Below, piece after piece: positions 1,943 to 49,183 of a stretch of DNA of 52,269 nt; position 1 is the first letter of the stretch; each line of letters opens with the position of its first letter. The DNA lies in IMG/VR virus record IMGVR_UViG_3300048076_000002, positions 1 to 52,269 of that record. One strand, written 5' to 3'. This DNA is from a virus. The translations under genes were made by a program, and so were the position numbers. A model generated the notes under the pieces. The model was not told the DNA's origin. It saw nothing but the letters and a program-made list of their open reading frames with translations, and did not search any database.

Positions 1943-1952
1943 TGACAGTAAT
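1943..1952 (+). repeat. TGACAGTAAT motif copy
   Basis: Intergenic. In minus sense it lies 25 nt after stop 1978 and 22 nt before ATG 1921. Flanked by a CGTG/CACG inverted repeat. Confidence 0.9.
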
Positions 1953-1977
1953 AAAAACACGTCGTTACAACGCAACC

Positions 1978-2292
1978 TTACTGTGACTTTTTCCACGGCG
2001 GCAACGATCTGCATTGCGATTCAGGGACCGGACGATGCAATGCCCGCTGAAATGCATCCGCTTCGCTTTGTAACATCATCTCCCGAATATCAGTTAGCAT
2101 TTGCTCAAGCGTAAGCCCTATCACATCGATTTTTGCATCTTTGATTACGTCGTCATGAGATACAATCATGTGATTTTCTAATAAGTCGCCCGGTTTCCCA
2201 CGTAGTACACGAATACAGACGTTCTTGGTGTCATCTACCTTGAACGACACTGATTCGTCGCTTAGCAATGAAAGCAGTAGACTTGATAGCAT
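1978..2292 (-). CDS. hypothetical protein (104 aa)
   Basis: Start moved to ATG 2292 (MLSSLLL...), which has GGAG about 9 nt upstream. Confidence 0.5.
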   Translation of the reverse strand: MLSSLLLSLLSDESVSFKVDDTKNVCIRVLRGKPGDLLENHMIVSHDDVIKDAKIDVIGLTLEQMLTDIREMMLQSEADAFQRALHRPVPESQCRSLPPWKKSQ

Positions 2293-2416
2293 GAGAACGA
2301 CTCCGTGTAAGCGTGTGGCAGTAATAAAGAGACACGCTGCTACACGCAACACCGTAGCAGCATGTCTTTAATCGGCAGACGTTGCATTGTCCGCCAATTA
2401 CATACGGAATGACCGA

Positions 2417-3997
2417 TCAAGCTTTCTTGCTCGCAGCCTTGCCTGCTTTCTTTGAAGCTGCTGGCTTTGAAGCTGCTGGCTTGCCGGGAGTAGGCAGTAC
2501 AGCTTCTGGCACGATCTGTCCAGTCACAGGAGCAGCAGAAGCACCGGCTTCAGGTGCTGCAACAGCGGCAGCAGCACCTTTCTTCGATGACCGTGGCGGC
2601 TTAGGAGCACCACCGTTCAACTCAGCTTCAGCAGCAGCAACGGCTTTCTCAGCGTCTGCTTTGGCTTTCTTAGCCTGGTCAAGAATCGCTTTCTTCGCTG
2701 CTCGATTCTGTTCAGCAACAACCTTAGCAGCTTCAGCAGCTTCAGCAGCTTGAGCCTTGTCAAGTTCGATCTGCTTTTGCCGCTCAACAACAGCCTGAGC
2801 AGAACGCTCGAAGCAGAGTGTGTGCCAGCCCTCGAAAAGTACCGGATCGGTTGAGTAACTGTCTCGTTCTTTCGCAGTCAGCTTGACCTGATTGACAGTA
2901 ACGTCCTTTACGCCAGCCAGGAACAGTCGAAACGCCTTGACGAACGGACCTGCCCACTCAGTATCACGATCCTTTGAGCCTTTCTGAGCGGTCAATTGAT
3001 TCCAATAGCCCGTCAACGCCCACTGGACCGATCCCTTCTCCAGCGATCCACCGACAGCCATGTTGTCAACGAACAGCATCGCCTTGTCGTACTTCTCGGA
3101 ATCAATCTCCATGATTCCATCTTTCGTCTCGACGACGCAAGCAACGTATAGCAACGCTGCGATGTACGACAGAGACATTTTCAGTCCCTTGTTACCGCCG
3201 TCATTCTTGTTGGCGTTCAGTACCATTGTAACAAATTTGCAGAGTTCCGGATGACGTTCGCGAATGAATGTCATCATTTCACTGATGAGAAACTTCGGAG
3301 CACTGGAGACAGTTGCCCCACCTTCGATGAGCCACACCAGGCGAGCAGCACCGGCAAGTGTCGTCGTCCAGGCTTTACGCCCGGCAAGTGTGTTCCATTC
3401 GGCTGGCAGAATTGCGTCAACCCACGGGTCACGAAACAGCACATCGGAGTGCTTACGAGTCTTGCCGATATCAACCGTGTCGGCTGTATCATGCTCGACG
3501 CCATAAATGACGACCGTTGGAATCTCAAGCTGAGCATCCGGCCATTCGTCGGGGTGTTTGGCAACTTCGGCAGCGGCGAGCAGCAGACCTTTCGCCCGGT
3601 GCTGGAGTGATACGCAGTGTTCACCACCTTCCGCGTCTTCGCTCATAATCCACGGCTCACCGTTCAGCTTCCACTGACCGCGAAGGTATTCGTTCGCATA
3701 CAGCTTTGCCAGGCCGAGAGATAACGGACGATTCGTCGAGTTCCACACTTCCATAATCTTTGCCGCAATCTCGACGGTCATCATGACAACCTTGGATCGG
3801 ATGTTGCATTCGTGTGCCGGGATACGACTGATGAATGCCTTGAATGACTGAACTTTCGCAGTCGCCGGAGCAGATGGAACTTTCGTAGCCGCCGGAGCAG
3901 ATTGAGCAGCAGTGTCAGCACCGTAACCGGCAGCAAATGCTTCCGTCTTTGACGCTGACTTAGAGGCTTTTGACGACATTGGAACAAACACAGACAT
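2417..3997 (-). CDS. ParB/Srx-like N-terminal domain protein with Ala/Lys-rich histone-H1-like tail
   Basis: NRPLSLGLAKLYANEYLRGQWKLNGEPWIM...SLQHR resembles the ParB-like NRP...GxW...DGQHR block. The C-terminal ~120 aa are AKKA/PAASK low complexity. Start chosen at ATG 3997 because it is preceded by CCAGGAG. Confidence 0.5.
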   Translation of the reverse strand: MSVFVPMSSKASKSASKTEAFAAGYGADTAAQSAPAATKVPSAPATAKVQSFKAFISRIPAHECNIRSKVVMMTVEIAAKIMEVWNSTNRPLSLGLAKLYANEYLRGQWKLNGEPWIMSEDAEGGEHCVSLQHRAKGLLLAAAEVAKHPDEWPDAQLEIPTVVIYGVEHDTADTVDIGKTRKHSDVLFRDPWVDAILPAEWNTLAGRKAWTTTLAGAARLVWLIEGGATVSSAPKFLISEMMTFIRERHPELCKFVTMVLNANKNDGGNKGLKMSLSYIAALLYVACVVETKDGIMEIDSEKYDKAMLFVDNMAVGGSLEKGSVQWALTGYWNQLTAQKGSKDRDTEWAGPFVKAFRLFLAGVKDVTVNQVKLTAKERDSYSTDPVLFEGWHTLCFERSAQAVVERQKQIELDKAQAAEAAEAAKVVAEQNRAAKKAILDQAKKAKADAEKAVAAAEAELNGGAPKPPRSSKKGAAAAVAAPEAGASAAPVTGQIVPEAVLPTPGKPAASKPAASKKAGKAASKKA

Positions 3998-4068
3998 GAT
4001 TGACACTCCTGGAGTTTTAACTGACTGAACACTTGAGGCAGAAAACATTTCCACCTCGACCTGACAGC

Positions 4069-4097
4069 ATCATTGCAGAATCAAAAAACAGTGTCAA
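4069..4097 (-). promoter_or_regulatory. candidate promoter upstream of the ParB-like gene
   Basis: In minus sense: TTGACA (4097..4092), a 17-nt spacer, then AATGAT (4074..4069). Confidence 0.3.
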
Positions 4098-4105
4098 CTG
4101 AAAAT

Positions 4106-5008
4106 TCAGAATTTTTCAGAATCGAAGGATCTGGACGCACGACGTTGATTCATCATTTGCTGTAAAATACGCCGTCTTTCATCAGATTCAGGATCTTTTG
4201 TGCCGTCCAAATAATTGCTTGTTCGACCACACCAATTGACTCCAGCCGGGCCTATGTGCAAGCATTCAAACGGCGGACGGTGCTTGAGATAAGCTGGCCA
4301 TCGAGCCTGAAAAAACGAGTCAGGTCCGCCAGCGTGCTTCCAGTTTACTTCGTGCCAGGGAGTCTCATGACAGAACTCAGAATCAGCGTGGAATATCTGA
4401 GTGTACCCAGCCCACTCAACTTGCTCTGGATGTAGTGGGTATTGACGCCAATATGCCTCTTTAGGCACTGAACAAGTTGGCGTTGACCCTTCCAGTTCTG
4501 GTGGAACAGCATCAAATCGCAGACCCTCACACATCCGACGTAATGGAGTGTAAAGGCAGTTTGGACTCATCGGCATCGGAAGTTCTGGGGCAGATATAGC
4601 GTTATCAATACCGAGATACCTAATACCTGCCAAGATACTGTCTATCTCAGGGAATTGCCAATTGATCTGCTTTGGCCAGGCAACGTCAGCATCCTGAATA
4701 CACATCCAGCCGTGCCGACCGAACGTTTCCAGTGCCTGCTCCATCGCTCCAAACTTATTGAACATCGCACCGCGATGATAAAACTTGGTCGTCTGATAGC
4801 AATGAGCATCATTAGCAGCCGCACATGCAATTGTGCGATCATCTGACGGCGTTGTAACAATCATCACTTCCTTGTAGTGATGCCGATTGTACGGCAACGT
4901 TAACTCAAGCAAATCACCACAGTCCACACTGACGATGATTGCTCTTAGTACAGGCTTGGCTTTTGAATCGCAAACGACCACGGCAAACTCCCTTCCGGTA
5001 TAGGACAC
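4106..5008 (-). CDS. GT-A-fold glycosyltransferase-like protein
   Basis: IIVSVDCGDLLELTLPYN...IVTTPSDD, GAMFNKFGAMEQAL and the DxD-like IQDADV are arranged as in GT2/GT7-type enzymes. Overlaps the upstream methyltransferase by 64 nt. Confidence 0.55.
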   Translation of the reverse strand: MSYTGREFAVVVCDSKAKPVLRAIIVSVDCGDLLELTLPYNRHHYKEVMIVTTPSDDRTIACAAANDAHCYQTTKFYHRGAMFNKFGAMEQALETFGRHGWMCIQDADVAWPKQINWQFPEIDSILAGIRYLGIDNAISAPELPMPMSPNCLYTPLRRMCEGLRFDAVPPELEGSTPTCSVPKEAYWRQYPLHPEQVEWAGYTQIFHADSEFCHETPWHEVNWKHAGGPDSFFQARWPAYLKHRPPFECLHIGPAGVNWCGRTSNYLDGTKDPESDERRRILQQMMNQRRASRSFDSEKF

Positions 5009-5559
5009 ACACCAAGACAGTCGCCGTACCTACGACGACGGTACTCAACAAAATCGTCAATTGCTTCCTGAATCCCTACGGAACATCCGACTTCACCTGG
5101 AGTAATAAAGTCATGCCCAAACATGTAGCCGCCGGGCTTGATCTTAACCCACCAATGCAAAAGATCGTCAAATACGAATTTCTTCTCATGATTGCCATCG
5201 ATGTACACGAACGACAATGTATTATTAACTGCCTTACCGACAGCTTCAATCGAATGCTCGTAACTCATCAGGCACCGATTTGCATCAATGTAAGACTTTA
5301 GCCGGACGGCTGCTTCCTTACGATGCGTGATCCGATCCACACCACCCCACAGCGTTGCAGCCTGCTTACTGTAATTTTCAGCGTTCTCGTAAGGATCGAC
5401 GCACCGCAAGATTCCATCCCACCCATCGAGCAGAATCTTTGCGTACTCTCCCAAGTGCGTACCAATCTCTACGCCTAGAGATTGGGGACCGCCAAGATTT
5501 TCTTCCATAAGGAAGCGGGGGATATCGTTACGTCCATTGATACCGATGTAGCGAAGCAT
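4945..5559 (-). CDS. class I SAM-dependent methyltransferase (Methyltransf_24/CmcI-like)
   Basis: GVEIGTHLGEYAKILL (SAM-binding motif I) and VYIDGNHEKKFVFDDLLHWWVKIKPGGYMFGHDF. The start context is TCAGGTGACTTATG. Confidence 0.75.
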   Translation of the reverse strand: MLRYIGINGRNDIPRFLMEENLGGPQSLGVEIGTHLGEYAKILLDGWDGILRCVDPYENAENYSKQAATLWGGVDRITHRKEAAVRLKSYIDANRCLMSYEHSIEAVGKAVNNTLSFVYIDGNHEKKFVFDDLLHWWVKIKPGGYMFGHDFITPGEVGCSVGIQEAIDDFVEYRRRRYGDCLGVCPIPEGSLPWSFAIQKPSLY

Positions 5560-5592
5560 AAGTCACCTGACAATTTCTGAGATAGAGAGTTA

Positions 5593-5844
5593 TCAACTCA
5601 AGTCCCCGGCACATAAACCAGCACCACAAGTGCATGGATCACACGTCGGGCACACGTCGTGACCGTGGTCACACTCGATCGCTATAGGCAATTCGATTGC
5701 TCGCCGAAACTTACAGCCTTCTTTGTGATTTCTCCTCACACCGCAACAGCAAGGGCACTGGTGACACACCTTACAAAACACAGACTCCGGCGAAGGGTTG
5801 ATAACAAAGGCATCAAGTCGAGGCGGCGTCACTGGTTGGTTCAT
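5593..5844 (-). CDS. Cys-rich small protein (13 Cys in 83 aa)
   Basis: FCKVCHQCPCCCG...GCKF...ECDHGHDVCPTCDPCTCGAGLC. Overlaps the 3' end of the radical SAM gene by 32 nt in another frame. Confidence 0.5.
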   Translation of the reverse strand: MNQPVTPPRLDAFVINPSPESVFCKVCHQCPCCCGVRRNHKEGCKFRRAIELPIAIECDHGHDVCPTCDPCTCGAGLCAGDLS

Positions 5845-6850
5845 CGCGATATTCCTTTGAAATTCTATGCGGTCTTAAGTCGGTCGAAAGCAAGTAGTCA
5901 ATCACTCGACGGCTGGCGTTACGCTTTGACACAACGTCTGGCTCAGACTGATTCATGTCATCCGGCGTTAATATGTTAAGCGTGTGCCCTATCTTCGGCT
6001 TCAAGTGACTGTAAGATCCATCGTCAACAACAGTGGTTCTGTCGTCAGTATGAGCTAAATCACCTTTACCTCGTAAAGGCACAAGGCAACGCTGGCAATG
6101 ATAGGCTACCTGATTGCGAAACGGCTCGACTTGCATTGGAGCTTTCCACCATCCCGGCGTAACGACCATGCCAGTATCCGGGTAGCTTGGATCAAACTGA
6201 TTGATCATCGCCTGACCGCCAGCAACCTCACAAAAGAATCCCCGAAGCTCATCACGGAACTGACAGATCATTGCTGACCAATGCTTATTGATATCACACT
6301 CTGATATCAGCTTCCATCGATCTGAAGCGTCGGGAACTTGCAACGCTAAGTCGCCGTGTACAGGCGAGTGTAAGCTGTCGCGGTCATGCCCAAACGGTCT
6401 TGACTCTGGCCAGAAATCCTTGAATTTATGGTACGCTTCCACACTCATATGACAATTCAGATTGGAGTGTGCTGGACTGAATGTCTCTCGCATTGCACGG
6501 GCATTGCTCATACTGACTGGATTGTTTGACCAGACACCACATTTCTCTTTAGGGAAGTAATTTCTGAGGATAGCACATATGTCGATGAACTTGGGGTGCA
6601 TCGCTGGATTGCCGCCGAAGATTCCGATAAGCCCGAAGTAACCTTCCATTGACTGACAGGCAAGCTCGAAATTCTCCAGCGTGATGTATGAGGCACGCCC
6701 GGCGAATTGTGATCCTTGCGTACAGTTGCTGCACGCCAAGTCACAGGCACGAGTCAAATGTATTTGCATGACGCCATCCATGCCACCACATTTGCCGGGA
6801 CGGCGTTGACCGGGAGGAACCATTACGCTGAGTGCTTCGTCGATGTTCAT
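5813..6850 (-). CDS. radical SAM enzyme
   Basis: HLTRACDLACSNCTQ contains the CX3CX2C cluster motif. GIFGGNPAMHP resembles the GGEP motif. Confidence 0.75.
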   Translation of the reverse strand: MNIDEALSVMVPPGQRRPGKCGGMDGVMQIHLTRACDLACSNCTQGSQFAGRASYITLENFELACQSMEGYFGLIGIFGGNPAMHPKFIDICAILRNYFPKEKCGVWSNNPVSMSNARAMRETFSPAHSNLNCHMSVEAYHKFKDFWPESRPFGHDRDSLHSPVHGDLALQVPDASDRWKLISECDINKHWSAMICQFRDELRGFFCEVAGGQAMINQFDPSYPDTGMVVTPGWWKAPMQVEPFRNQVAYHCQRCLVPLRGKGDLAHTDDRTTVVDDGSYSHLKPKIGHTLNILTPDDMNQSEPDVVSKRNASRRVIDYLLSTDLRPHRISKEYRDEPTSDAAST

Positions 6851-6875
6851 GTTAACGATCCTGACTGAGAGTGAG

Positions 6876-6885
6876 TGACAGTAAT
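6876..6885 (+). repeat. TGACAGTAAT(CA) motif copy
   Basis: Intergenic. It lies 6 nt after the stop of 6892..7197 and 26 nt before the radical SAM ATG. Confidence 0.9.
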
Positions 6886-6891
6886 CAAATG

Positions 6892-7197
6892 TTAGGATTG
6901 CGTTTCAAGCAAGTGTGCATCTCGAAGACCTCTGGCGTATCCTTGCTCTTCTGCTCGCCTTATGTCTTTTCCACGGCTTGATTGCAACGCACGAATCTCA
7001 CGGTGTAACTCTGTATCATCTTCTCGATACAGTCGTAATCTTTCTTCCAGGTCACGGAGTTCCCTTTCGACATACTGACAAGCTGGTTTTGAGTGCGTGT
7101 ACGGACCAAAGTGATCTGCTGCACTTTGAGTGTCTTCAAATAATTCATCACAGTGAAAGCACTTCCACGGACCTTGACGTTGTGATTCTTCTGTCAT
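6892..7197 (-). CDS. zinc-finger/coiled-coil protein
   Basis: WKCFHCDELFEDTQSAADHF is C2H2-like and is followed by a charged heptad-like segment. Confidence 0.55.
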   Translation of the reverse strand: MTEESQRQGPWKCFHCDELFEDTQSAADHFGPYTHSKPACQYVERELRDLEERLRLYREDDTELHREIRALQSSRGKDIRRAEEQGYARGLRDAHLLETQS

Positions 7198-7214
7198 GGC
7201 TTACTCTCTTTCAA

Positions 7215-8294
7215 CTAAATATGATCCACCACGTACTCAGGCGAATGATTGAAGTTACGCCTGAACATTTCAATATCGTACGCCAGTTTAGATGTGACTT
7301 GTCTATAGTCGTAAAGCAGTGTTGCTCTGTCGGCAAAGAATTTTTGCCGCTCAGGACTATATTTAGCTTCCATCCCAAGAATCACTTCGTCAATTTCCAT
7401 CAACGACATTTCACGGAAGTTAACACGAGTCAGATTCTCGTCGATGCCAGGAATGTACTCGTCGATCGGCAAGTCAGTCAGCACAGCACAACCACAAGCC
7501 GTTGATTCCACAATCTTACGCAAAGCGTACCCATACCGGCTACATGTACAAATAGAGATTTTGAAGCGTGATAGGTGCTGCATGAATCCAGGTGTGTTAC
7601 ATCCTTTACGATGATACCCAGGATGAGGCAGTACAGATGCTGCCAAACCTCGATGAGCCAACAAATGCTGCCGTTCAGGGTACGCATTCGATATTGCACC
7701 GCTGAACAGGCAGCCCTGCCGTCCTTTATCACTGTAGTCGGGTACTTTATCAGCGTCAACAGTGTGCCAGGTCCGAATCAGATGCCCGGCACGAGTGTAC
7801 GGAGCAAGATGATTGACGATGCGGGGATTGTAATAAACGATCCAGCCATGCACGCCCAACTCTTCAGCAGCTTCGCGATGCCACTGTGGCCGCTGTTGAG
7901 CATCTTTCAGTACCGTAAGCCGTAGTATGGCTTTATTATTCCTGAAAGCATCTAAGTTACGAAACTGTGCTTTTGGCTCGCGAAAGTCGCCTTGCGGAAA
8001 CCACTCCCGCTTATCTTGCATGACAACGATACCCGGCTTTACGTCTCTCACAATGAAATGGCAGTCAGTCATACCGCATGGCAGTCCGTACCCGCAGTGC
8101 GTATAACCGGCTTTCGCCAAGCCCGCAGTTATCTGCCAGCCTTCATCTGTCATATGATGCTGCATTGACGCAACACCCAGCACGGCACGACCTGCCATTT
8201 CTGGCTCCGGACAATAAGCAGGCGTCCTGAGTATAGGCGTTTGTTCGAGAGGCTTATTGCTGTCGATTATCTGCTGAATGGTGAGCGGTTGCAT
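7215..8294 (-). CDS. GT-B-type glycosyltransferase (CgeB/Glyco_trans_1_2-like)
   Basis: The C-terminal ISICTCSRYGYALRKIVESTACGCAVLTDLPIDEYIPG fits the GT1/GT4 C-domain. Start moved to ATG 8294 because it is preceded by the conserved leader TCTCAGAAGTTTTCGTCAGG. Confidence 0.6.
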   Translation of the reverse strand: MQPLTIQQIIDSNKPLEQTPILRTPAYCPEPEMAGRAVLGVASMQHHMTDEGWQITAGLAKAGYTHCGYGLPCGMTDCHFIVRDVKPGIVVMQDKREWFPQGDFREPKAQFRNLDAFRNNKAILRLTVLKDAQQRPQWHREAAEELGVHGWIVYYNPRIVNHLAPYTRAGHLIRTWHTVDADKVPDYSDKGRQGCLFSGAISNAYPERQHLLAHRGLAASVLPHPGYHRKGCNTPGFMQHLSRFKISICTCSRYGYALRKIVESTACGCAVLTDLPIDEYIPGIDENLTRVNFREMSLMEIDEVILGMEAKYSPERQKFFADRATLLYDYRQVTSKLAYDIEMFRRNFNHSPEYVVDHI

Positions 8295-8335
8295 GGATGA
8301 GCCTGACGAAAACTTCTGAGATATTAGTACAGCCA

Positions 8336-8503
8336 TTAACTGCGTCGTAAATAAGCAGTCGCTAAATCGCTAAACAGGATAGACAGGAAAGAGCACAGCA
8401 GCGTTTCAGCAGTCATTCTTTCAGCGATAAAGTATGCCGAAAGAAGCAGTAATACAGTTCCAATCACAGCACTAGCCAAAGCATACGTCCGATTCTTATT
8501 CAT
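8336..8503 (-). CDS. small membrane protein (2 predicted TM segments)
   Basis: MNKNRTYALASAVIGTVLLLLSAYFIAE...LLCSFLSILF. Its ATG overlaps the upstream stop as ATGA. Confidence 0.5.
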   Translation of the reverse strand: MNKNRTYALASAVIGTVLLLLSAYFIAERMTAETLLCSFLSILFSDLATAYLRRS

Positions 8504-10059
8504 ATTATTGGTCCTGAATGAGGAAGTGATCTGTACACGTTGTAGCACTCACCGGGGAATGATTTCGCATGAGCGTACCGCGTATCGCTTTCATTACTAT
8601 TCCAGGGATTACCCATCGAAGACTCAATCCCGACATGTTGAGTTAATGAAGGGTTATGAATGAATTCTGACACACTACACTCAGCCAGAGCTCCCAGTAC
8701 AGCACCGTCTAAAGCAACATTCCCTAACTGAGCATCATGACGGCGAGTGATAAATCTCCGGCTCGACAACAGCATTTCCACAACATGATGCCGGAACACT
8801 AAAGCTATAGCACCCCGACCGCGTTGATAACCACTCTTACCTCTGTATGCTTCCATCCATCCCGGCTGACGATCATGGATGATCTCTTCGTTTTCCATAA
8901 ATGTCAATAGATTGATATATGAATTTTGAGGAATTTGAGAAAATAATATGTAGTCTTTCAGTCCCTTCACGCAACGAATATCGTCCTGAAAGACAGCGTA
9001 ATACTCACTCCAGGGGTCAGCTGAATACATGTCCAGTAGTGTGCGATGCCAGTGAAATACAGTTCCCATTCGCGGGTACTGCTTAACTACAGCGAGTACC
9101 TGTTGCAACTTATCGTCATTCAACCTGACCGTGCAACTCTGATCATCTGACGCAAAACTGTGCCGAGACTTGATGCTCACATCAGGAACTAAATCACGAA
9201 AGCATTCCCATGACGACATAAGCGAACTGTCGCTAGCGTTCTGCTGTGGACTGTTTGACCGGCTGAACAGGCTATCCCGATCCAAGTATCCATCCACGTA
9301 CAATGTTATCTTGTTAAACCCACCAGCAGCCAATGACAGTAATGAGGATTTAGTGTAAAATGGATTGTTTGCCCGATCCGGTATCGTTGTCATACCACAA
9401 GTCCAAGTGCCGGGGATGAAAGGCATCTGATTCTTTGGATTTGAATCCCCGCCGTTCCATTCATGCACAAGCTGTTTGAGCCTGTCAAAATGACCCAACG
9501 TATCAATAACACGACGGTGGCACAGATGATTAGCGTGATAACCGTACACTACGCCAGGGATACCAAGCTCGCTTATCTTCCGCTTGAATGCTGCTAACGT
9601 GCCGTCGTGGATACTGCCGACGAGTACACGCTCTGGCGGCACAGGCGGCTTAATATCTGCTTTCTGACCACCACTCAACCAGTTATTCACCCATTCACCA
9701 ACAGCGTTAATTTTCTTCTGTCTTTCTTCACAGTTGCAGGGAGCACCCAGCCATCTGGAGTAGCGTTCCTTAGTGATGCCAAAGAATTCCAATCCTTTGG
9801 CAATCTTATCCCCCCAACCGTCCGGCTCATGAATCACCGTATTGTACGAGGTCTCTTCCAAGTCAATACCTGTGAACTCGCTGTATAACTTCCTGGCCAG
9901 CGTTACTTGACTTGACTGACATTGCAGTCGTCGTGTACCGTCAGCCGACATACTGCCGAAGTATAGTTCAAACCGGCCATCAACGAACCTGGCGAACTCT
10001 GCCCGCTGATCTTCTGCAATTTTACCTAGTGGTACGCGGTCGTTTGCTACGGCAGACAT
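8500..10059 (-). CDS. two-domain glycosyltransferase-like protein (paralog of 10123..11079)
   Basis: The C-terminal half shares the blocks TTIPDR, FQDDIRCV, NLLTFMENEE, ALVF and HNPSLTQHVGIESSMGNPW with the next gene. Confidence 0.55.
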   Translation of the reverse strand: MSAVANDRVPLGKIAEDQRAEFARFVDGRFELYFGSMSADGTRRLQCQSSQVTLARKLYSEFTGIDLEETSYNTVIHEPDGWGDKIAKGLEFFGITKERYSRWLGAPCNCEERQKKINAVGEWVNNWLSGGQKADIKPPVPPERVLVGSIHDGTLAAFKRKISELGIPGVVYGYHANHLCHRRVIDTLGHFDRLKQLVHEWNGGDSNPKNQMPFIPGTWTCGMTTIPDRANNPFYTKSSLLSLAAGGFNKITLYVDGYLDRDSLFSRSNSPQQNASDSSLMSSWECFRDLVPDVSIKSRHSFASDDQSCTVRLNDDKLQQVLAVVKQYPRMGTVFHWHRTLLDMYSADPWSEYYAVFQDDIRCVKGLKDYILFSQIPQNSYINLLTFMENEEIIHDRQPGWMEAYRGKSGYQRGRGAIALVFRHHVVEMLLSSRRFITRRHDAQLGNVALDGAVLGALAECSVSEFIHNPSLTQHVGIESSMGNPWNSNESDTRYAHAKSFPGECYNVYRSLPHSGPII

Positions 10060-10122
10060 AGAGCACCTGACTGAGAGTTAAGCAACACCCGACGACAACT
10101 TCTGAGATAGGAATATATTGCG

Positions 10123-11079
10123 TTAGCTTACATGATCCGTGAGTTTAATCAACTGACATGCATCAAACTCTTCCCCCGGAAATATAGGCGACTGAGGATA
10201 GCGTTTTGTGTCTCGCACGTCAACATCGATTTTCTGCCAATGATTTCCCATCGAACTCTTGATGCCGGTGTGTTGTACCAGTGATGGATTATGACAGTAC
10301 TCTTTCCAGCCAGCACGACGCATCGCTTCAACCACCCCGCCATCTAATGCTCGATATCGCAGTTCCGGGTTCCACAGACGTTTGAGCAAACTTGACTGTG
10401 ACATCAAAGCCACTACAGCCTCGTTGCTAAACACCAAAGCAACGCCACCGTATCCATTCTGGTTAGTCTGTCTCCAGCCGTGCTCTAATTTGTTTGGCCA
10501 TTTATCCTCATTGCCCATGAACGTGAATAGGTTACAGTATCCGTTTTGCGGATACGTGGAATTATCCAAGTAGCTCCGTAGGTTTTTACATAACACTATA
10601 TCGTCCTGGAAAATTGCAAACCGCGTTGCATACGGATCGCGAATGTAAAGTTCGAGCAGTGTCAGCAGCCAGTGACCGTACGTGCGAATGTTAGATTCTC
10701 GAAAGACTGTTGGCAGCTTGTAATTACCGTACAGGTCGCTGTGCGGGCTGTCAACAAAGATGATTGGTGATCCGAATCCGGCTTTTACAAGAGAAGCCAT
10801 TGTACGGTCAAATAAGTCTTTCCTGGACGGCACAGTCGTTATCGCGTACATCCATCTTGGCGGACCTATGTACTTTGGGAGTAAGCCTGATTCCCTGTCA
10901 TTCCATTGAGATAAGTAATCCCGCATTTGATTCGCACTACTCTGCGGGGCACTTATTCGCCGCATCCCATCGCCGGTACGACTGCCCTTCACCGCTCCGG
11001 GTATATGCGTGTAAACCGATCGAAGTAATTCGTCGGCTTCATCGTCTTTCACTTTTCCACAGACAACGAGTTTACTCAT
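10123..11079 (-). CDS. GT-A-fold glycosyltransferase-like protein
   Basis: AITTVPSRKDLFDRTMASLVKAGF, the DxD-like FQDDIVLC, and HNPSLVQHTGIKSSMGNHW. Confidence 0.6.
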   Translation of the reverse strand: MSKLVVCGKVKDDEADELLRSVYTHIPGAVKGSRTGDGMRRISAPQSSANQMRDYLSQWNDRESGLLPKYIGPPRWMYAITTVPSRKDLFDRTMASLVKAGFGSPIIFVDSPHSDLYGNYKLPTVFRESNIRTYGHWLLTLLELYIRDPYATRFAIFQDDIVLCKNLRSYLDNSTYPQNGYCNLFTFMGNEDKWPNKLEHGWRQTNQNGYGGVALVFSNEAVVALMSQSSLLKRLWNPELRYRALDGGVVEAMRRAGWKEYCHNPSLVQHTGIKSSMGNHWQKIDVDVRDTKRYPQSPIFPGEEFDACQLIKLTDHVS

Positions 11080-11082
11080 AAG

Positions 11083-11754
11083 TCACACCGGGCCAATCAA
11101 GGACCATAATGGCGGATGTATCGCATGGTTGATTATTAACTGCCCTCTATACGGCCTGGAAGGGTCAGTGAATATAGGACCGATGGAAGTTGGGTAGCAT
11201 CTGTGATTGACAGTATCGTATTCATTTCTTTCAATCGTCTGAGACGTACCCCGCATCTCTGCAAACAAAGCAAAAGCTGCGGAGCCTATCACAGGACCGT
11301 CAGCCGAATTCCGACAACCACGGAATTCTATCGAACGCTGTACGGTTATGAAGGCATTGAGTGGACCGCCAAACCTGATGCTAAGTTTCTTCGTCACTTT
11401 ATGGTAGCATGTCACATTAGATCCGATATTCGAATCGTACACAGGGTACTCTGTTCCTGTAACAATAGATCCTTCCCAAAAGCATTTTCCTATCCGACCA
11501 ACAAGCACAGCATCCACTTCTGCTTTAGTGACGGTGGCTTGTGGGATTAGTTCGTAATTCCAAAACACAAACGAAAAGTAAGGCGGTGCTACTAAGCAGT
11601 CGCTGCATGTGTCTGCCTTAAAACCCGGTCGAGCACAAACAATACAGTTCTTACTCTCATCGTCAACAAGAATTGTTTCCGCTTTTAACTGATTCGTACA
11701 CAGTCCACGGAACCAATCATCGTCTTCGTTGCTCCAGTAATAGCATCCCATCAT
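11083..11754 (-). CDS. Cys-rich tail fibre/receptor-binding module protein
   Basis: Begins with the module CYYWSNEDDDWFRGLCTNQLKAE...NCIVCA, which is shared with the next gene. Located at the distal end of the tail module. Confidence 0.45.
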   Translation of the reverse strand: MMGCYYWSNEDDDWFRGLCTNQLKAETILVDDESKNCIVCARPGFKADTCSDCLVAPPYFSFVFWNYELIPQATVTKAEVDAVLVGRIGKCFWEGSIVTGTEYPVYDSNIGSNVTCYHKVTKKLSIRFGGPLNAFITVQRSIEFRGCRNSADGPVIGSAAFALFAEMRGTSQTIERNEYDTVNHRCYPTSIGPIFTDPSRPYRGQLIINHAIHPPLWSLIGPV

Positions 11755-12209
11755 TCACATCCAGAAATAGCAACCTGTCCTGGAGAACCAGGAAAATCCG
11801 GTGCAACAGGGGAACACCCGACAGAACATTCATTGCTCGCCAGTACCCATATACCACTAAACTCATCCCATATCCAACTGGAGTAGCCAGTACATCCCGG
11901 AATGCTTCCTGTGCCTGTGGCTTGAGGGGCAACGCATACCGAACAGTTTTTATGATCAAAGGTGGTCGTTGAGTCTGAAGTGAGTTTGTTTCTGCATAGC
12001 CCGCTGAAATGCACGTCTTGTTGGGACCATGACACGCATCCATTCTCGCCTGTTACTTTATCAACAAATGCCGTGCCTACCTGAACTGGATGTACACAAA
12101 CTTCACATGTCTCTGTCGTATTAGCTGCTTCTGCCATCAACTGATTCGTGCATAGTCGATTAAACTTAGTGTCAAAGTTTGACCAGGTGTAGCAACTCAT
12201 GTCTAGCAC
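11751..12209 (-). CDS. Cys-rich tail fibre module protein (two internal repeats)
   Basis: Two internal repeats: CYTWSNFDTKFNRLCTNQLMAE...TCEVCV and CVSWSQQDVHFSGLCRNKLTSD...NCSVCV. The C-terminus resembles that of 12203..13327. Confidence 0.45.
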   Translation of the reverse strand: MLDMSCYTWSNFDTKFNRLCTNQLMAEAANTTETCEVCVHPVQVGTAFVDKVTGENGCVSWSQQDVHFSGLCRNKLTSDSTTTFDHKNCSVCVAPQATGTGSIPGCTGYSSWIWDEFSGIWVLASNECSVGCSPVAPDFPGSPGQVAISGCE

Positions 12210-13327
12210 CCTATGCAGTTAGTCGTCGCTTGCTGCCCTTCAAAGCTGCCGTCATAGTCCGGAAAGTCAGGAGTACCTAATCCTACACAGTTATTATTGA
12301 CGATAGACCACGCCCCGCTTATCCATTCGAATGTCGTTGTTCCGCACGGGCTAGATGTGCCTGTCGGCAAGCAATCGTTATACCCAATCAGAATACCAGC
12401 GTCGTATCCTGCCTGATACCCTTCGCTGTATGAGTTATTCCAGGTTCCTGTGCCTGTAATAATTCCTGTGCCTGTACCTGTGCCGGTTTGAAGCGTGCCG
12501 ACTTGCGAAGTTGATGTGCCTAGCGTTCCGCCAGCATTATTGCAGCCAACATACCAGCCACTAAAATACCCGTCAGCGTAGCCCGCAGCATATGCGGCGG
12601 TAGCGGGATCTTCAGGTATTGTGCCCGTGATGCATAGTTCCAGTTTCGTTTTACCGCCGGACGACTTGTAAAACGTCAGTGTACCGTCCATCGTAACTGT
12701 AGGTGTTACATCCTCGCCGTCCAGATTATACGCTACCAAATCATCCCCAACATCCAGCCGCCAGTAGCTCTGGCCGGACACCTTAGTTAGCGTGTAACTC
12801 CCGGCGGGAAGATGTATCGACCCATGCAACTGATTCTCAATCACATCAGATCCAAATCCGACTACCCACTGTGATGTTGTCTCCACGCCATCAACTACGA
12901 TGTCACCATTATCCAGGCAACTACAACCACACCCGTCAGCAGCAGCAGCCCCGCCGCTACCACTTGGCGGTCGATACTCAGCACCGTACCGCTCAACAAA
13001 TATTATGTCGCCCAGTGAAGCCGAGTAGTTAGTGTGCCGGTTCGTGACAGTAACAATATCTGCGTCAGAGTCTGCCTCTTCCATGTCAAGACTGTCGGAC
13101 AGCACGCCTTGCTTGTATCGACGAATCCTGGCTGTAGTCTGTGTATAGCCTGTCAGATCCCCGGTAGCGGCCGCTAAATCTCCCAGCAGTCTAACGTAGT
13201 AGCCTTCATCTTCACGCTGCAACAACTTCGCATCGTCTGCCGGTCCAGGCTGAAACTTACCGCCGAGCACACGTTGATAGATAAGTGACGCATCCTCAAA
13301 TCTATATACGCCTAATGGGTTACTCAT
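12203..13327 (-). CDS. tail fibre/baseplate protein with Gly/Thr-rich linker
   Basis: 374 aa with GTGTGTGIITGTGTW. The C-terminal CGTTTFEWISGAWSIVNNNCVGLGTPDFPDYDG is paralogous to the end of 11751..12209. Confidence 0.45.
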   Translation of the reverse strand: MSNPLGVYRFEDASLIYQRVLGGKFQPGPADDAKLLQREDEGYYVRLLGDLAAATGDLTGYTQTTARIRRYKQGVLSDSLDMEEADSDADIVTVTNRHTNYSASLGDIIFVERYGAEYRPPSGSGGAAAADGCGCSCLDNGDIVVDGVETTSQWVVGFGSDVIENQLHGSIHLPAGSYTLTKVSGQSYWRLDVGDDLVAYNLDGEDVTPTVTMDGTLTFYKSSGGKTKLELCITGTIPEDPATAAYAAGYADGYFSGWYVGCNNAGGTLGTSTSQVGTLQTGTGTGTGIITGTGTWNNSYSEGYQAGYDAGILIGYNDCLPTGTSSPCGTTTFEWISGAWSIVNNNCVGLGTPDFPDYDGSFEGQQATTNCIGC

Positions 13328-13366
13328 GACATGCCTGACAATTTCTGAGAATGAAGTACAGTACGA

Positions 13367-14446: not shown

Positions 14447-14470
14447 GGTGTCACAGTCCGTGCGTATGAA

Positions 14471-14480
14471 TGACAGTAAT
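14471..14480 (+). repeat. TGACAGTAAT motif copy
   Basis: Intergenic. It lies 14 nt after the tape measure stop and 25 nt before ATG 14446. Confidence 0.9.
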
Positions 14481-14494
14481 ACAGAATGACGATC

Positions 14495-34700: not shown

Positions 34701-35024
34701 AGGTGATTCTCCTGAGAGTGTGGTAGGTATGGCATCATTTGACACAATCAGCAGGTGATTTGTCAAGCGTAAATGTCATAACCAGTAAAAATGCATATGT
34801 GAGGGTAAAAAATGCGTAACGTTCCGGCGTGGGTACGGAGCCGCTACTCATAATAGGATCACCCCCTATCCCCTTCGATCGACCTACGATCCATCGATGA
34901 CGGGGGAGCGTAGTGTTGATGGGGATGAGTGATTGGGAGAGTAGCCGAGTGATATGGCGAGTCGTTGTCAGGCAAGAGCGAGTAGCCTGGATCTCAGCCA
35001 ATCAGAGAAATGTTATGACAGTTA

Positions 35025-35052
35025 TTGACTCATCCTGTCGATCTGGTACGAT
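35025..35052 (+). promoter_or_regulatory. candidate promoter for the second plus-strand operon
   Basis: TTGACT, a 16-nt spacer, then TACGAT. It lies ~70 nt upstream of ATG 35122. Confidence 0.35.
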
Positions 35053-36366: not shown

Positions 36367-36375
36367 CAGTAATCA
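36364..36375 (+). repeat. TGACAGTAATCA motif copy
   Basis: Its initial TGA is the stop codon of 35992..36366. It is followed by the hairpin TCAGGC-aacgta-GCCTGA and a partial second copy, TGACAGTG. Confidence 0.9.
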
Positions 36376-36674: not shown

Positions 36675-36935
36675 ATGACAATGAAAAAATACTATGTAAT
36701 TCGACGCGGATGGAACGAGGCAAACCAATCGGCCAGAAACTCAGCGAGAAACCCACGTAATCAATTTGAATCGCGTGAATTGCAACTTGTGGCAATTATT
36801 GAAGCAACTTCAGAAGAATCTGCCGTCTGCCTGGCAAACGTGATCGCGTACCCTGGGCAAGTAGTTTTCACCGAGACAAATCCGCGAGCAATCAAAGGTC
36901 TGACTCAGGCAATTCGTAATTTCATGGCTGAATGA
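36675..36935 (+). CDS. hypothetical protein (86 aa)
   Basis: Its stop TGA is the first triplet of a TGACAGTAATCA motif. Confidence 0.55.
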   Translation: MTMKKYYVIRRGWNEANQSARNSARNPRNQFESRELQLVAIIEATSEESAVCLANVIAYPGQVVFTETNPRAIKGLTQAIRNFMAE

Positions 36936-36944
36936 CAGTAATCA
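36933..36944 (+). repeat. TGACAGTAATCA motif copy
   Basis: Its initial TGA is the stop codon of 36675..36935. Confidence 0.9.
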
Positions 36945-38795: not shown

Positions 38796-38807
38796 TGACA
38801 GTAATCA
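38796..38807 (+). repeat. TGACAGTAATCA motif copy
   Basis: Lies in the 870-nt non-coding region. Confidence 0.9.
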
Positions 38808-42906: not shown

Positions 42907-42941
42907 AAGTCACCTGAGTACTTAATGAAAGTAATAGAAAG

Positions 42942-43253
42942 TTAGTTCGTTCCGCGTTCTCGTCTTGATTTTTCTAAATGGCAACTGATACACAGTGTTT
43001 GTGAATTCTCCAATGTGTCTTCACCGCCAGACGATAGCGGAATGATATGATCTCTCTCAAGTGCTGACTCTGGATACACCTGACCACACAGAACGTTCTG
43101 GCATGTGAAGTTGTCACGGATGAAAACTTGTAGCCGTTCCTTAGTTCTGCCTTTTCGTCGAAATAGGGACGGCGTTCCTTGCGACTCCGGCACTGTTGAC
43201 TGTCGCGGCTGCTTTGTGATCTTGACTGTTGGGTACTTGAACATGTTTTTCAA
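42942..43253 (-). CDS. HNH endonuclease
   Basis: CQNVLCGQ...ALERDHIIPLSSGGEDTLENSQTLCISCHLEKS. Confidence 0.8.
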   Translation of the reverse strand: MKNMFKYPTVKITKQPRQSTVPESQGTPSLFRRKGRTKERLQVFIRDNFTCQNVLCGQVYPESALERDHIIPLSSGGEDTLENSQTLCISCHLEKSRRERGTN

Positions 43254-44542: not shown

Positions 44543-44552
44543 TGACAGTAAT
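44543..44552 (+). repeat. TGACAGTAAT motif copy
   Basis: It lies 5 nt after the stop of 44558..44824 and 23 nt before helicase ATG 44520. Confidence 0.9.
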
Positions 44553-48368: not shown

Positions 48369-48407
48369 AACGCTAGTGCCGAGAGAGTTTCTGAGATAGA
48401 TGTACGA

Positions 48408-48722
48408 TCAGCCTTTTGCTGACGATCGTTTGATCCGCCTATGCTTACATCGAGCTTTACTGATGTAGACTAAGCCGGGATTTCTCCAAGCAAGGATACG
48501 AGCTTGAGTATTTAAGCCGTGTCGGTACTCACGGCGAGCATGATCAGCATTAACAACCCGATTCAGTTTTTCGTTGCAGTCGTCTGATCTTCGCTTACGC
48601 AGCATTCTCTCAATCTCTGCGTAATCGTACGTCATTTCAACATCAACTATAGCAATTGTAACTTCTGTTGATGTAAATACAGTACGAGAATTTTTCTTCT
48701 CGTTTGGTGTCTGAGCAATCAT
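48408..48722 (-). CDS. hypothetical basic protein (104 aa)
   Basis: Co-oriented ORF. No family recognised. Confidence 0.5.
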   Translation of the reverse strand: MIAQTPNEKKNSRTVFTSTEVTIAIVDVEMTYDYAEIERMLRKRRSDDCNEKLNRVVNADHARREYRHGLNTQARILAWRNPGLVYISKARCKHRRIKRSSAKG

Positions 48723-48866
48723 TACTTTCTGCTTTCAAACATCTCCGTAGGTGATTACTATATTTTGACTGGGATGTGAGGATAGAACAGTATGGCGGAT
48801 TTAGGTATACGTGTCTTTCCACACGTCTACAACTATGGACCCACTCACATTAGCCAGTACACATCA

Positions 48867-49067
48867 CTAAGGACTTAAAACTGCATTCATAATGTAAGGT
48901 AACATAAGTCCTAAAATCACTAATACCGCGAATACAACAAGCCGCTTAAAGGAATGGTATTCAGCCATTCCTTCCGGGCACATACAACCCGATTTTCTTT
49001 CGGTGCATGTATCGCAGGACGAGCAGTAGTATCGTTTACGTTTTATTGACATCACTGTGACTTTCAA
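48867..49067 (-). CDS. small Cys-rich membrane-anchored protein
   Basis: CSSCDTCTERKSGCMCPEG followed by a TM segment LVVFAVLVILGLMLPYIM. Confidence 0.45.
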   Translation of the reverse strand: MKVTVMSIKRKRYYCSSCDTCTERKSGCMCPEGMAEYHSFKRLVVFAVLVILGLMLPYIMNAVLSP

Positions 49068-49080
49068 CGTGAGTGCCGAG

Positions 49081-49119
49081 AATGAGAAAATAGGAGCTTA
49101 CGACCGTCATAAGCTCCTA
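49081..49119 (-). terminator. rho-independent terminator (minus strand) after 49186..50037
   Basis: A 10-bp stem (TAGGAGCTTA / TAAGCTCCTA) with a 9-nt loop. In minus sense it is followed by TTTTCTCATT. Confidence 0.55.
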
Positions 49120-49171
49120 ATGTTAAGTGAGTGACATTTAATAGCTGACCCAACTACGCACCGACGGTCAG

Positions 49172-49183
49172 TGACAGTAATCA
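49172..49183 (+). repeat. TGACAGTAATCA motif copy
   Basis: It lies 2 nt after the stop of 49186..50037 and ahead of the terminator hairpin. Confidence 0.9.

Follow-up and report, generated by a model that had tools for sequence, protein, structure and literature searches.

The late promoters of phage T4 have the sequence TATAAATA, lack a -35 box and are read by gp55/gp33. Stoperators of cluster A mycobacteriophages (the L5 gp71 sites) are asymmetric, about 13 bp long and dispersed in dozens of copies, mostly in short intergenic spacers; their orientation follows transcription and flips between genome arms. In lambda, late transcription from a single promoter with the Q antiterminator crosses the joined ends into the terminase genes. 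Nick motifs have been described as TACT/RTGMC in phage tf and as WACTRTGAC in Rembedalsseter (PMC3517423, PMC11780129). In the Pseudomonas phages tf and Rembedalsseter and in other LUZ24-like phages, the TACT/RTGAC nicks are confined to a single strand, irrespective of how local genes are oriented; the nicks were experimentally proven in LUZ24-like / Krylovvirus phages (PMC3517423, PMC11780129).

The window, the whole stretch of 52,269 nt analysed here, is from a novel freshwater phage and contains the 10-mer TGACAGTAAT on the plus strand, which is ATTACTGTCA on the majority-coding minus strand. LUZ24-like phages and the window have in common 9-10 nt words in 9-14 exact copies in genomes of about 45-52 kb. 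In both, the words occupy one strand even in the oppositely transcribed arm, mostly the majority coding strand, lean to gene starts or junctions, and their near-cognates are restricted to that strand. At the seventh base the window has C and the LUZ24-like motif G; flanks are AT/T-rich in the window but GC-rich in LUZ24-like phages. Gene content is unrelated, and nicking is known there whereas the sites here are candidates. T4 late promoters resemble the window motif as short, near-invariant -10-region words without a -35 box, present in many copies upstream of middle/late genes, with some intragenic or antisense to early genes. The sequences are unrelated, however, and the conserved block in the window extends from about -16 to the predicted start. 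A phage factor is required at T4 late promoters, as it would be for the window motif if this were a promoter; a gp55/gp33-like factor was not detected among the ORFs scanned (most predicted genes). Stoperators are likewise asymmetric, dispersed, mostly intergenic and subject to a strict orientation rule, but the window motif differs from those of L5 in its constant orientation, its sequence and the fact that no repressor or integrase was found. A lambda-like position of the terS-like gene at the left genome end is suggested solely by the ends of relatives' contigs. In virion DNA the nearest same-sense copies upstream of this gene are at the opposite end, from which terS could be reached only after circularisation. 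In place of the single promoter of lambda there would be three or four promoter-like copies here, antisense to about 20 early genes.

Copy number and strand of the motif

Exact copies of TGACAGTAAT were counted on both strands against shuffled controls. All 12 were on the plus strand (12:0; 0.13 expected). At up to one mismatch, 27 copies were found, again on the plus strand only (3.9 expected on both strands combined), of which 15 had one mismatch. Two-mismatch copies were at background (32 plus, 43 minus). The core 8-mers GACAGTAA and TGACAGTA gave plus to minus counts of 18:0 and 18:1, and sub-words of TGACAGTAAT had no strand bias once motif copies were set aside. In intergenic DNA the three commonest 8-mers included ATTACTGT and TTACTGTC (10:0 each), with which CTCAGAAA of a further element, motif 2, ties. 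The strand-fixed motif is therefore genuine, beyond the strength first claimed for it. The sequence-only reading had listed 11 exact copies, all of which exist, but missed the intragenic copy at 9334; its five one-mismatch copies are among the 15. It had rightly reported no exact reverse-complement copy and six copies extending to ...TCA, the number also counted here. The looser variants that it gave (4062, 31853, 34740, 36391 and 37847) carry 2-4 mismatches and so were not taken as evidence. Individual copies are listed in Table 1.

Table 1. Motif copies, in the minus-strand sense, and a candidate gene in the window
Feature	Position	Strand	Context
Exact copy	1943..1952	-	Fused to T-tract of terminator 1974->1958
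One-mismatch copy ATTACTGCCA	2316..2325	-	Directly after 15-bp-stem terminator 2367->2330; precedes ATG of gene 1978-2292 by 23 nt
Exact copy	6876..6885	-	6 nt past stop of ORF 6892-7197; ATG of 5813-6850 at 25 nt
Exact copy	9334..9343	-	Within gene 8500-10059, sense strand, frame 2
Exact copy	14471..14480	-	48-nt spacer; stop 14 nt before, ATG of 13367-14446 24 nt after
Exact copy	17977..17986	-	In 421-nt gap 17639-18059; 10-bp long-loop hairpin and CTTTT before it
Exact copy	20682..20691	-	Within gene 20433-21083, sense strand, frame 2
One-mismatch copy ATTACTGTCG	21927..21936	-	Spacer after capsid gene; motif 2 (CTCAGAAA, 21789) about 130 nt downstream, ahead of ATG
Exact copy	23999..24008	-	Overlaps stop of protease gene 24008-24721; downstream, motif 2 at 18 nt and ATG of 23749-23958 at 40 nt
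One-mismatch copy ATTACTGTCG	28747..28756	-	Upstream of TerL; TACTGT exactly 17 bp from perfect TTGACA
One-mismatch copy ATTACTCTCA	31981..31990	-	642-nt divergent control region; faces late operon
One-mismatch copy ATAACTGTCA	35016..35025	-	Start of plus-strand early block; points toward terS (34116-34700); adjoins -35 of plus-strand sigma70-like promoter
Exact copy	36364..36373	-	Antisense to local plus-strand genes; TGA = stop of 35953-36366; full extended consensus (cctg...ttCA); part of 27-nt repeat with 36933
Exact copy	36933..36942	-	Antisense to local plus-strand genes; TGA = stop of 36675-36935
Exact copy	38796..38805	-	484-nt noncoding gap of plus-strand block; full extended consensus; motif-2-like TTCAGAAG 30 nt downstream
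One-mismatch copy ATTACTTTCA	42926..42935	-	6 nt past HNH endonuclease gene stop; next ATG at 19 nt
Exact copy	44543..44552	-	37-nt spacer, TAA + TTTTT + motif; ATG 22 nt on, of gene for 459-aa winged-helix protein
Exact copy	49172..49181	-	4 nt past stop of 49186-50037; terminator 49119->49091 (13-bp stem) 52 nt downstream
Nine one-mismatch intragenic copies	2893..26413 (starts 2893, 10292, 13045, 13687, 20515, 21409, 21449, 22328, 26404)	-	All sense, all three frames; most without extended flanks
HNH endonuclease gene	42942..43253	-	Candidate reader/nickase only if the motif is a nick site

Placement and anatomy of the site

On a gene map in which coding sequence makes up about 85%, 10 of the 12 exact copies fall between genes (P = 2.8e-7), in line with the 10 of 11 reported from sequence only; the other two (9334 and 20682) are intragenic. 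In minus-strand gene blocks the motif lies 4-25 nt past a stop codon and the next ATG is usually 19-25 nt beyond, with a Shine-Dalgarno sequence in between at 2316, 6876, 14471, 42926 and 44543. Orientation is constant across the genome, as had been proposed, and the copies in the plus-strand block stay on the same strand and are antisense to the local genes. The motif's TGA forms the stop of two plus-strand genes and not of three, while the TCA at 24008 was confirmed on the gene map as a minus-strand stop. The plus-strand block holds four copies (three exact, two of these independent, since 36364 and 36933 have a 27-nt context in common), which is the genome-average density (3.4 expected if uniform), and no credible minus-strand ORF follows any of the four. 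Within genes, near-cognates (nine in the window, none on the opposite strand) were in sense orientation only and in all three frames; 13 sense copies were counted in the window vs 4.1 expected from synonymous shuffles.

The extended minus-strand site is yyT(G/T)-ATTACTGTCA-ynCA. The T at -2 is conserved in 10 of the 12 exact copies (p<1e-4), and beyond the motif's end the C at +3 and A at +4 in eight each (p=0.0014 and 0.004). This C-A, 6 nt downstream of TACTGT, is the pyrimidine-purine pair usual at transcription starts. Mean best -35 scores were 2.56 at sites vs 2.50 at random positions, i.e. not enriched, and upstream hairpins showed no overall enrichment at motif copies. The TTGACA noted earlier 17 bp from the hexamer (28749-28777) is correct, and 28747 is the sole copy with a -35 box. 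The strong intrinsic terminators 2367->2330 and 1974->1958 have T-tracts that continue straight into copies 2316 and 1943, leaving 23 and 3 nt, respectively, between motif and next ATG, so that the motif is the only room for re-initiation. At 1943 the conserved A (1939) forms the first base of an in-frame ATG that lacks a Shine-Dalgarno sequence (ORF 1565-1939, a weak Holliday-junction-resolvase match), a geometry resembling that of a leaderless mRNA. The consensus of the ribosome-binding region turns with the direction of the genes; the motif does not, and is therefore no generic signal for translation.

Occurrence in relatives of the phage

Distant relatives have ATTACT(G/T/C)TCA at 19-22 nt ahead of genes, mostly in gene direction. 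ATTACTNTCA was found 19-22 nt upstream of ATGs and in gene direction in 9 of 11 intergenic cases, and the 19-22 nt distance recurs in six contexts from at least five lineages. In L063, L030 and L089, ATTACTTTCA follows a terminator-like hairpin at this distance ahead of the ATG, a place taken by motif 2 in other relatives; in L075 it lies 22 nt before TerL. The region equivalent to the divergent control region at 31981 carries 2-3 tandem ATTACTNTCA copies in relatives, and in L063 an exact copy faces the reverse genes. The relatives' capsid promoter is conserved and of sigma70 type (TTGACN-17-TAcnnT), and in the L043 lineage its -10 hexamer lies inside ATTACTTTCA, 17 bp from TTGACA. The genes that flank the 14471 spacer abut, with no spacer, in most relatives.

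About 80% of the relatives' copies are in coding sequence, where near-cognates number 45 vs 5.8 expected from synonymous shuffles (eight-fold), in all three frames. The few opposite-strand copies tend to follow gene direction. Relatives' contigs terminate 0-560 nt before terS, which puts the genome terminus just ahead of this gene, and the copies of the plus-strand block therefore point across the end-join into terS.

Candidate functions of the motif

The motif is best explained, at a little short of an even chance, as the core of a -35-independent, phage-specific promoter for minus-strand units. It would act as a re-initiation signal for these units, with the site yyT(G/T)-AT-TACTGT-CA-yn-CA in which TACTGT is a -10-type hexamer (TAnnnT). 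The predicted start is the conserved A that lies four bases beyond the 10-mer (motif start minus 4 in the window), giving 1939, 6872, 14467, 23995, 36360, 36929, 38792 and 49168. Given the missing -35 box and weak -10 match, host RNA polymerase would depend on a specificity factor encoded by the phage, which would read the invariant flanking bases. For the copies of the plus-strand block we infer that transcription heads for the right end of the genome; in circularised DNA or concatemers these transcripts would run into the terS-like gene, late and antisense to early genes. The earlier suggestion that they are terS-directed or antisense thus agrees with their pointing across the end-join, but sits less well with their genome-average density, all four being antisense.

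A promoter was also the proposal of the sequence-only reading and is partly supported. It is favoured by the intergenic enrichment 4-25 nt after stops, the CA extension, the terminator fusions, the TTGACA at 28747, the leaderless-type ATG at 1943, the L043 -10 within ATTACTTTCA, the relatives' spacing to ATG and 9/11 gene direction, the unflipped orientation relative to the ribosome-binding consensus and the plus-strand-block copies upstream of terS across the end-join. Counting against it are the lack of enrichment of -35 boxes or upstream hairpins, the terminator after, not before, copy 49172, the 6 nt from hexamer to predicted start (below the usual 7) and a 7-8/9 identity to the consensus of nicks that are proven. 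A promoter accounts poorly for three facts: the average density of the four antisense plus-strand-block copies, the intragenic near-cognates above synonymous-shuffle expectation in all frames, and the finding of no sigma factor, RNA polymerase or late activator among the ORFs scanned (most predicted genes). All three are explained by a nick site, an alternative absent from the earlier list and the main rival to a promoter. Here a phage nickase would cut the minus strand of mature or replicating DNA within ATTACT|GTCA, which we consider possible but rather unlikely. The TACTGT-A core is in common with tf TACTGTGAC (7-8/9 positions identical), and the position right after TACT is tolerant in both (R in tf and LUZ24, G>T/C in the window). 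Strand counts have the same signature (tf 14:0 exact and 17:0 at up to one mismatch, LUZ24 9:0, window 12:0 and 27:0), and tf sites stay on the top strand in both convergent arms, as the plus-strand-block copies do here. Sites at or near gene junctions on the majority coding strand make up about half in the tf left arm and more than half in LUZ24, and nick-site positions are conserved among tf/LUZ24 relatives. In the family of the window phage, about 80% of the copies are coding, in all frames and under selection as nucleotides, a share close to the 88% reported for the LUZ24-like group. Candidate nucleases are the HNH protein and the weak resolvase-like match 1565-1939. Yet no protein homology to tf was detected, the window minus strand has no exact match to the consensus WACTRTGAC, and exact copies are 83% intergenic here vs 12% in the LUZ24-like group. 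The T-tract fusion, the -35 at 28747 and in L043, the leaderless ATG and the CA extension would be coincidences, and the relatives' few opposite-strand copies tend to follow gene direction. In LUZ24 the nick motif did not emerge among the promoter motifs, which separates the two phenomena in that phage.

The rigid motif-ATG distance (19-25 nt in the window, 19-22 nt in the relatives' six contexts) and the sense-only intragenic copies in every frame would also suit an RNA signal (AUUACUGUCA) in minus-sense mRNAs, either a translational enhancer upstream of the Shine-Dalgarno sequence or the site of a sequence-specific endoribonuclease. The motif is, we presume, loosely like the 'epsilon' enhancer UUAACUUUA of T7 gene 10. 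An RNA signal is the least probable explanation, as the four copies of the plus-strand block are antisense to local mRNAs, the T-tracts fused to 1943 and 2316 would usually keep the motif out of transcripts, 3 nt at 1943 leave no room for a Shine-Dalgarno sequence, and the two -35-coupled cases argue for a DNA-level element. Scarcely less improbable is an asymmetric site for a phage DNA-binding protein, which might serve as an operator or as an orientation-dependent, stoperator-like roadblock. Many dispersed, asymmetric, mostly intergenic copies, an 18-nt footprint, 2-3 tandem variants in the divergent control region of window and relatives, and the exact copy 22 nt ahead of the gene for the winged-helix protein itself are consistent with it. 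Stoperators, however, flip with transcription direction, which the plus-strand-block copies do not, and a binding site would not explain why coding copies in every frame are under selection at the nucleotide level. Integrase and repressor were not found in the window, while replication genes (DNA polymerase I, primase and an AAA-type ATPase) were, which suggests a lytic lifestyle. Candidate binding proteins are the winged-helix protein (43141-44520) and a small RHH/HTH protein (45897-46121).

Number, placement and anatomy of motif 1

Motif 1, the strand-fixed 10-mer TGACAGTAAT (ATTACTGTCA-type when read on the minus strand), was found in 12 exact copies in the window, all on the plus strand (12:0), against 0.13 expected. 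Copies are named here by their plus-strand start. With one mismatch or none, 27 copies were counted, again exclusively on the plus strand (27:0), against 3.9 expected for both strands together. The sequence-only reading had described a strand-fixed, non-random motif, and these counts bear it out; chance and assembly artefact are excluded as its source. The same reading had listed 11 exact copies. Their restriction to the plus strand stands, and the number becomes 12 with the addition of 9334, which had been missed. Looser variants had also been listed. These are background, since two-mismatch copies are distributed evenly between the strands (32:43, plus to minus). No strand bias was seen for sub-words of motif 1 once the motif copies were set aside.

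Ten of the exact copies fall between genes in a genome with approximately 85% coding sequence (P=2.8e-7), so the proposed intergenic enrichment holds as 10/12 rather than 10/11. Within intergenic DNA, the 8-mers of motif 1 (10:0) tie as the commonest words with CTCAGAAA (10:0), which belongs to motif 2, a second strand-biased element near minus-strand gene starts. Plus-strand gene regions, which make up 12.4% of the genome, contain 4 of the 27 copies; direction-blind placement would put 3.4 there. These four, in the plus-strand early genes (the + block), all run antisense to the local genes, and no credible ORF was found after them on the minus strand. The TGA of the motif, previously assigned as the stop codon of three plus-strand genes, has this role in only two (36364 and 36933). 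These two copies were counted as one event because they have a 27-nt context in common. A synonymous-codon shuffle of the window gave 4.1 expected sense copies where 13 were observed, and 1.6 antisense copies where none was observed.

The site extends beyond 10 nt and reads yyT(G/T)-ATTACTGTCA-y-n-C-A on the minus strand. Among the 12 exact copies, 10 have T at position -2 (p<1e-4), and 8 each have C at +3 and A at +4 past the motif (p=0.0014 and 0.004), the conserved C-A lying 6 nt after TACTGT. The full extended consensus is also present in the + block copies. One-mismatch copies tolerate changes at both ends and replacement of the G following TACT by T or C. Within the minus-strand blocks, 4-25 nt separate the motif from the stop codon upstream. 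At 2316, 6876, 14471, 42926 and 44543 the next ATG is 19-25 nt away with a Shine-Dalgarno sequence between, and at 1943 the conserved A is itself the A of an in-frame ATG (1939) without a Shine-Dalgarno. The T-tracts of two strong minus-strand terminators, 2367->2330 and 1974->1958, run into copies 2316 and 1943. This order is reversed in the region 49091-49181, where copy 49172 comes first and a strong terminator (13-bp stem plus TTTTCT) follows 52 nt on. If the motif is a promoter, a small RNA of approximately 75 nt would be made from 49172; otherwise the structure is simply the terminator of gene 49186-50037.

Upstream hairpins were rejected as a shared feature, with no overall enrichment (-8.9 vs -7.9 +/- 3.6 kcal/mol). 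A -35 box was found at a single copy, 28747 (perfect TTGACA at 17 bp), in agreement with the earlier remark that most copies lack one. Mean best -35 scores were 2.56 at sites and 2.50 at random positions; overall the motif does not match a sigma70-type bacterial promoter, which has a TTGACA-like -35 box 16-18 bp upstream of the -10 hexamer. The ribosome-binding-region consensus CTCAsTCAGGwG precedes genes in both orientations and flips with gene direction, whereas motif 1 does not.

Motif 2 reads (T)TCTAyCTCAGAAAtt in minus sense (for example at 5574, 13342, 21789, 23973, 30644, 48388 and 51374) and precedes the ATG of genes on the minus strand by 15-25 nt. Its strand counts are 18:0 for CTCAGAAA and 34:7 for YTCAGAA. 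In spacers with both elements, motif 2 is always downstream of motif 1. CTGACGGTAC was discarded as a third strand-biased word, being the collagen-like Gly-Thr-Asp tandem repeat (around 30362-30388) inside gene 29638-30582 on the minus strand.

The phage genome and its physical end

The window is a complete, circularly assembled tailed-phage genome whose last 120 nt are a copy of positions 8-127. It encodes an HK97-type capsid, portal and TerL and a ClpP-like protease, together with the replication genes for DNA polymerase I, a primase and an AAA-type ATPase. The minus strand carries the majority of genes (1-31.7 kb and 39.8-52.3 kb), and genes on the plus strand are found at 32.36-34.11 kb and 34.92-39.65 kb, separated by a minus-strand terS-like gene (34116-34700). 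An INPHARED search returned no near DNA match among cultured phages, and the best portal match in 5.8 billion database proteins has 55% identity; hence no close relatives exist for synteny tests. Distant relatives, with capsid proteins 57-75% identical, were recovered from freshwater metagenomes. tRNA and Rfam scans of the window returned nothing.

Clues to the host are weak and consist of the Lake Mendota metagenomes and one early protein (35567-35929, plus strand), which matches Pfam PF23790, the Kyanoviridae (cyanophage) Gp96 family, at E=2e-10. The latter is the sole hint of a possibly cyanobacterial host. A 'Caulobacter' MAG bin was dismissed as a host clue, as its GC content is mismatched.

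At least eight independent contigs of relatives (L067, L068, L074, L081, L083, L095, L101 and L107) stop 0-560 nt upstream of the terS-like gene. Transferred to the window, these contig ends suggest a defined physical genome end near 34.7-35.3 kb, despite the circular assembly. On this layout the plus-strand block at 34.9-39.6 kb would form an early block at the right end, with transcription running inward. A repeat of 17-26 nt, GTGTTCTTTCAATTCTCACTCAGGAG, is located directly upstream of four consecutive plus-strand early genes and spans their ribosome-binding site; it may be an early-gene cassette signal. A large noncoding region within the same block contains 12-nt tandem iterons and many CTGAGTC/CTGACTC words, and may be a replication origin or terminase-binding region. 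The TerL ORFs of four relatives (L016, L032, L035 and L043) are 950-995 aa, approximately 330 aa longer than that of the window, and homology to the window TerL begins at residue ~145-150. These long ORFs may contain an intein or inserted domain.

The element in distant relatives

The 10-mer itself is not amplified in the relatives, and motif 1 is absent from L061, the sole relative of the replication module. The degenerate form ATTACT(G/T/C)TCA is a family-wide element, present in 73 distinct contexts in relatives. Its intergenic copies are oriented with the downstream gene in 9/11 cases, and six of them lie 19-22 nt before an ATG, a spacing as in the window. The element is 22 nt before TerL in L075 and directly follows a hairpin in L030, L089 and L063, with a T-tract as well in the first two. 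An exact copy in the divergent control region of L063 faces the reverse-strand genes. The family capsid promoter (TTGACN-17-TAcnnT) is conserved, and in the L043 lineage its -10 hexamer is embedded in ATTACTTTCA. A second element, ..CCCAGAAA.., stands after the capsid terminator in most relatives; L063 has ATTACTTTCA at the same place. Most relatives have directly adjoining genes at the tape-measure junction; in the window and in L043 a spacer with the element is inserted there. Together these placements tie the element to gene starts and -10 hexamers.

Approximately 80% of the relatives' copies are inside genes, in all three frames, with 45 in sense and 2 in antisense orientation. A synonymous shuffle predicted 5.8 sense copies (maximum 13), and permuted control words gave a mean of 1.1. 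The excess of coding copies over the shuffle expectation, in both window and relatives, shows that coding DNA, too, is under nucleotide-level selection for the word.

Several further candidates were discounted. The variant 8-mers ATTACTTC (7:0) and TACTGCCA (8:0) in relatives are coding-sequence words in single-orientation gene blocks. An exact copy at capsid +174 is weak as a case of DNA-level conservation, since it is broken in two relatives and the sequences are related. An IMG/VR scan for the extended motif TGATTACTGTCAYNCA gave 87 single hits and no other lineage with the system; the few loci with several near-matches were AT-rich genomes with antisense coding matches, and were attributed to chance.

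Relatives retain motif 2 as ..TCCCAGAAA.. immediately past the capsid terminator, and the L043 version is joined with ATTACT as TTACTCCCAGAAA. A hairpin, CAGCCGCAGTACAG...CTGTACTGCGGTTTGT, is conserved in all relatives just upstream of the ortholog of 20433-21083 (for example L007 ~12049-12131) and may be a conserved terminator or regulatory RNA. At the equivalent junction of the window (21084-21334) a different hairpin is present.

Readings of motif 1

We tentatively favour a -35-independent phage promoter element of a T4-late-like class, at a little below an even chance. This reading accounts for the position in intergenic DNA, the constant spacing, the CA extension and the leaderless ATG, as well as for the fusion to terminators, both -35 couplings and what is seen in relatives. 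In the minus-strand blocks all 23 copies show the pattern of a gene-directed -10-region word upstream of genes, without a -35 box; the four in the + block violate this pattern. Those four point to the predicted genome end and, after end-joining, would point into terS, which gives the promoter model a post-hoc rationale for them. The predicted start of transcription is four bases below the motif start, with indirect support from the conserved C-A and the ATG at 1939. This would put minus-strand starts (+/- 2 nt) at 1939, 6872, 14467, 23995, 44538/9 and 49168, and antisense ones, active at middle or late times, at 36360, 36929 and 38792. No sigma factor, RNA polymerase or late activator was detected when ~65 ORFs, most of whose proteins are matchless, were scanned against Pfam and PHROGs. 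The principal rival is a single-strand nick site as in tf and LUZ24-like phages, which we regard as somewhat unlikely; the nick-associated motif of those phages is the nearest to motif 1 in sequence. Nick motifs have been described for tf (TACT/RTGMC, 14 mapped nicks), Rembedalsseter (WACTRTGAC, 13 nicks) and ~60 LUZ24-like phages (PMC3517423, PMC11780129). Re-derived from the genomes, strand counts were 14:0 for exact sites in tf (17:0 with <=1 mismatch) and 9:0 in LUZ24, where TACTRTGAC stands at 1918, 3341, 5336, 6451, 8416, 13276, 20773, 25349 and 29861. The sites keep to a single strand across both transcription arms, and between about half (tf left arm) and over half (LUZ24) lie at or near gene junctions. 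A nick site would explain the absolute strand exclusivity of motif 1, kept on the same DNA strand in the + block, the density of copies there and the selected copies inside coding sequence. The window motif TACTGTCA(Y) is also identical to the LUZ24-like/tf consensus at 7-8 of 9 positions, with TACTGT-A and the position of the degenerate base in common. Against this, the exact consensus WACTRTGAC / TACTRTGMC occurs once on the plus strand of the window and not on the minus strand, and the intergenic preference is far stronger in the window: 88% of LUZ24-like sites are coding, compared with 2/12 exact window copies, although the share in the window phage's relatives is close to the LUZ24-like value. 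The window lies outside the LUZ24-like gene-content cluster, its capsid, portal and TerL being of HK97 type, and tblastn of all window ORFs against tf, which might have revealed a shared nickase, returned no match at E<1e-3. The promoters mapped in LUZ24 are of the sigma70-like kind, and its nick motif did not emerge as a promoter motif. ONT-cappable-seq start sites of LUZ24 include six of non-sigma70 type (PMC10914365).

The two readings could be joined. If ATTACT|GTCA were a nick site in a lineage unrelated to LUZ24-like phages, its -10-like core (TACTGT, vs TACTRT in tf and LUZ24), its placement at transcription-unit boundaries and its non-template-strand reading would imply that the localized nicks of phage genomes, long without explanation, arise at promoter-like open complexes or through machinery akin to them. 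We consider this combined reading quite unlikely. An operator or roadblock site is improbable. Stoperators of L5-like phages have an orientation fixed relative to local transcription and occur in temperate phages with a repressor; the + block copies, in contrast, are antisense to local genes, and no integrase or repressor family was detected in the window ORFs scanned. An RNA-level signal is highly improbable. A polar word of the Chi/KOPS type, spread in coding DNA with no relation to genes, is contradicted by the intergenic enrichment and fixed start-codon spacing. Literature searches for the literal motif strings returned primers and immunoglobulin sequences only.

Whichever reading holds, motif 1 is a clean regulatory or structural code, very far from random, in a phage that has hardly any characterised relatives. 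As a promoter, it would define transcription units and a predicted start rule for a dark freshwater phage lineage, and would imply a host-RNA-polymerase specificity factor among the unannotated genes. As a nick site, with its nearly identical core, it would bring site-specific genome nicking to phages other than the T5-like, phiKMV-like and LUZ24-like ones, and its strong gene-boundary preference would be the first real clue to the purpose of such nicks, a question ~50 years old (PMC11780129). Nicking at open complexes would, for the first time, tie phage genome nicking to transcription or re-initiation. Candidate readers of the motif are listed in the table with the repeats of the early block.

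Candidate readers of motif 1 and repeats of the plus-strand early block
Feature	Position	Strand	Remarks
HNH endonuclease (candidate reader)	42942-43253	-	free-standing; replication module; overlaps end of 43141-44520
Holliday-junction-resolvase-like ORF (candidate reader)	1565-1939	-	weak match; directly downstream of copy 1943
Winged-helix protein (candidate reader)	43141-44520		
Small RHH/HTH protein (candidate reader)	45897-46121		
Repeat GTGTTCTTTCAATTCTCACTCAGGAG	35339-35364, 35589-35614, 35957-35982, 36637-36653		
Noncoding region with iterons GTCAGTGAGAGA / CTCAGAGAGTTA	38088-38958		iterons especially at 38248-38295
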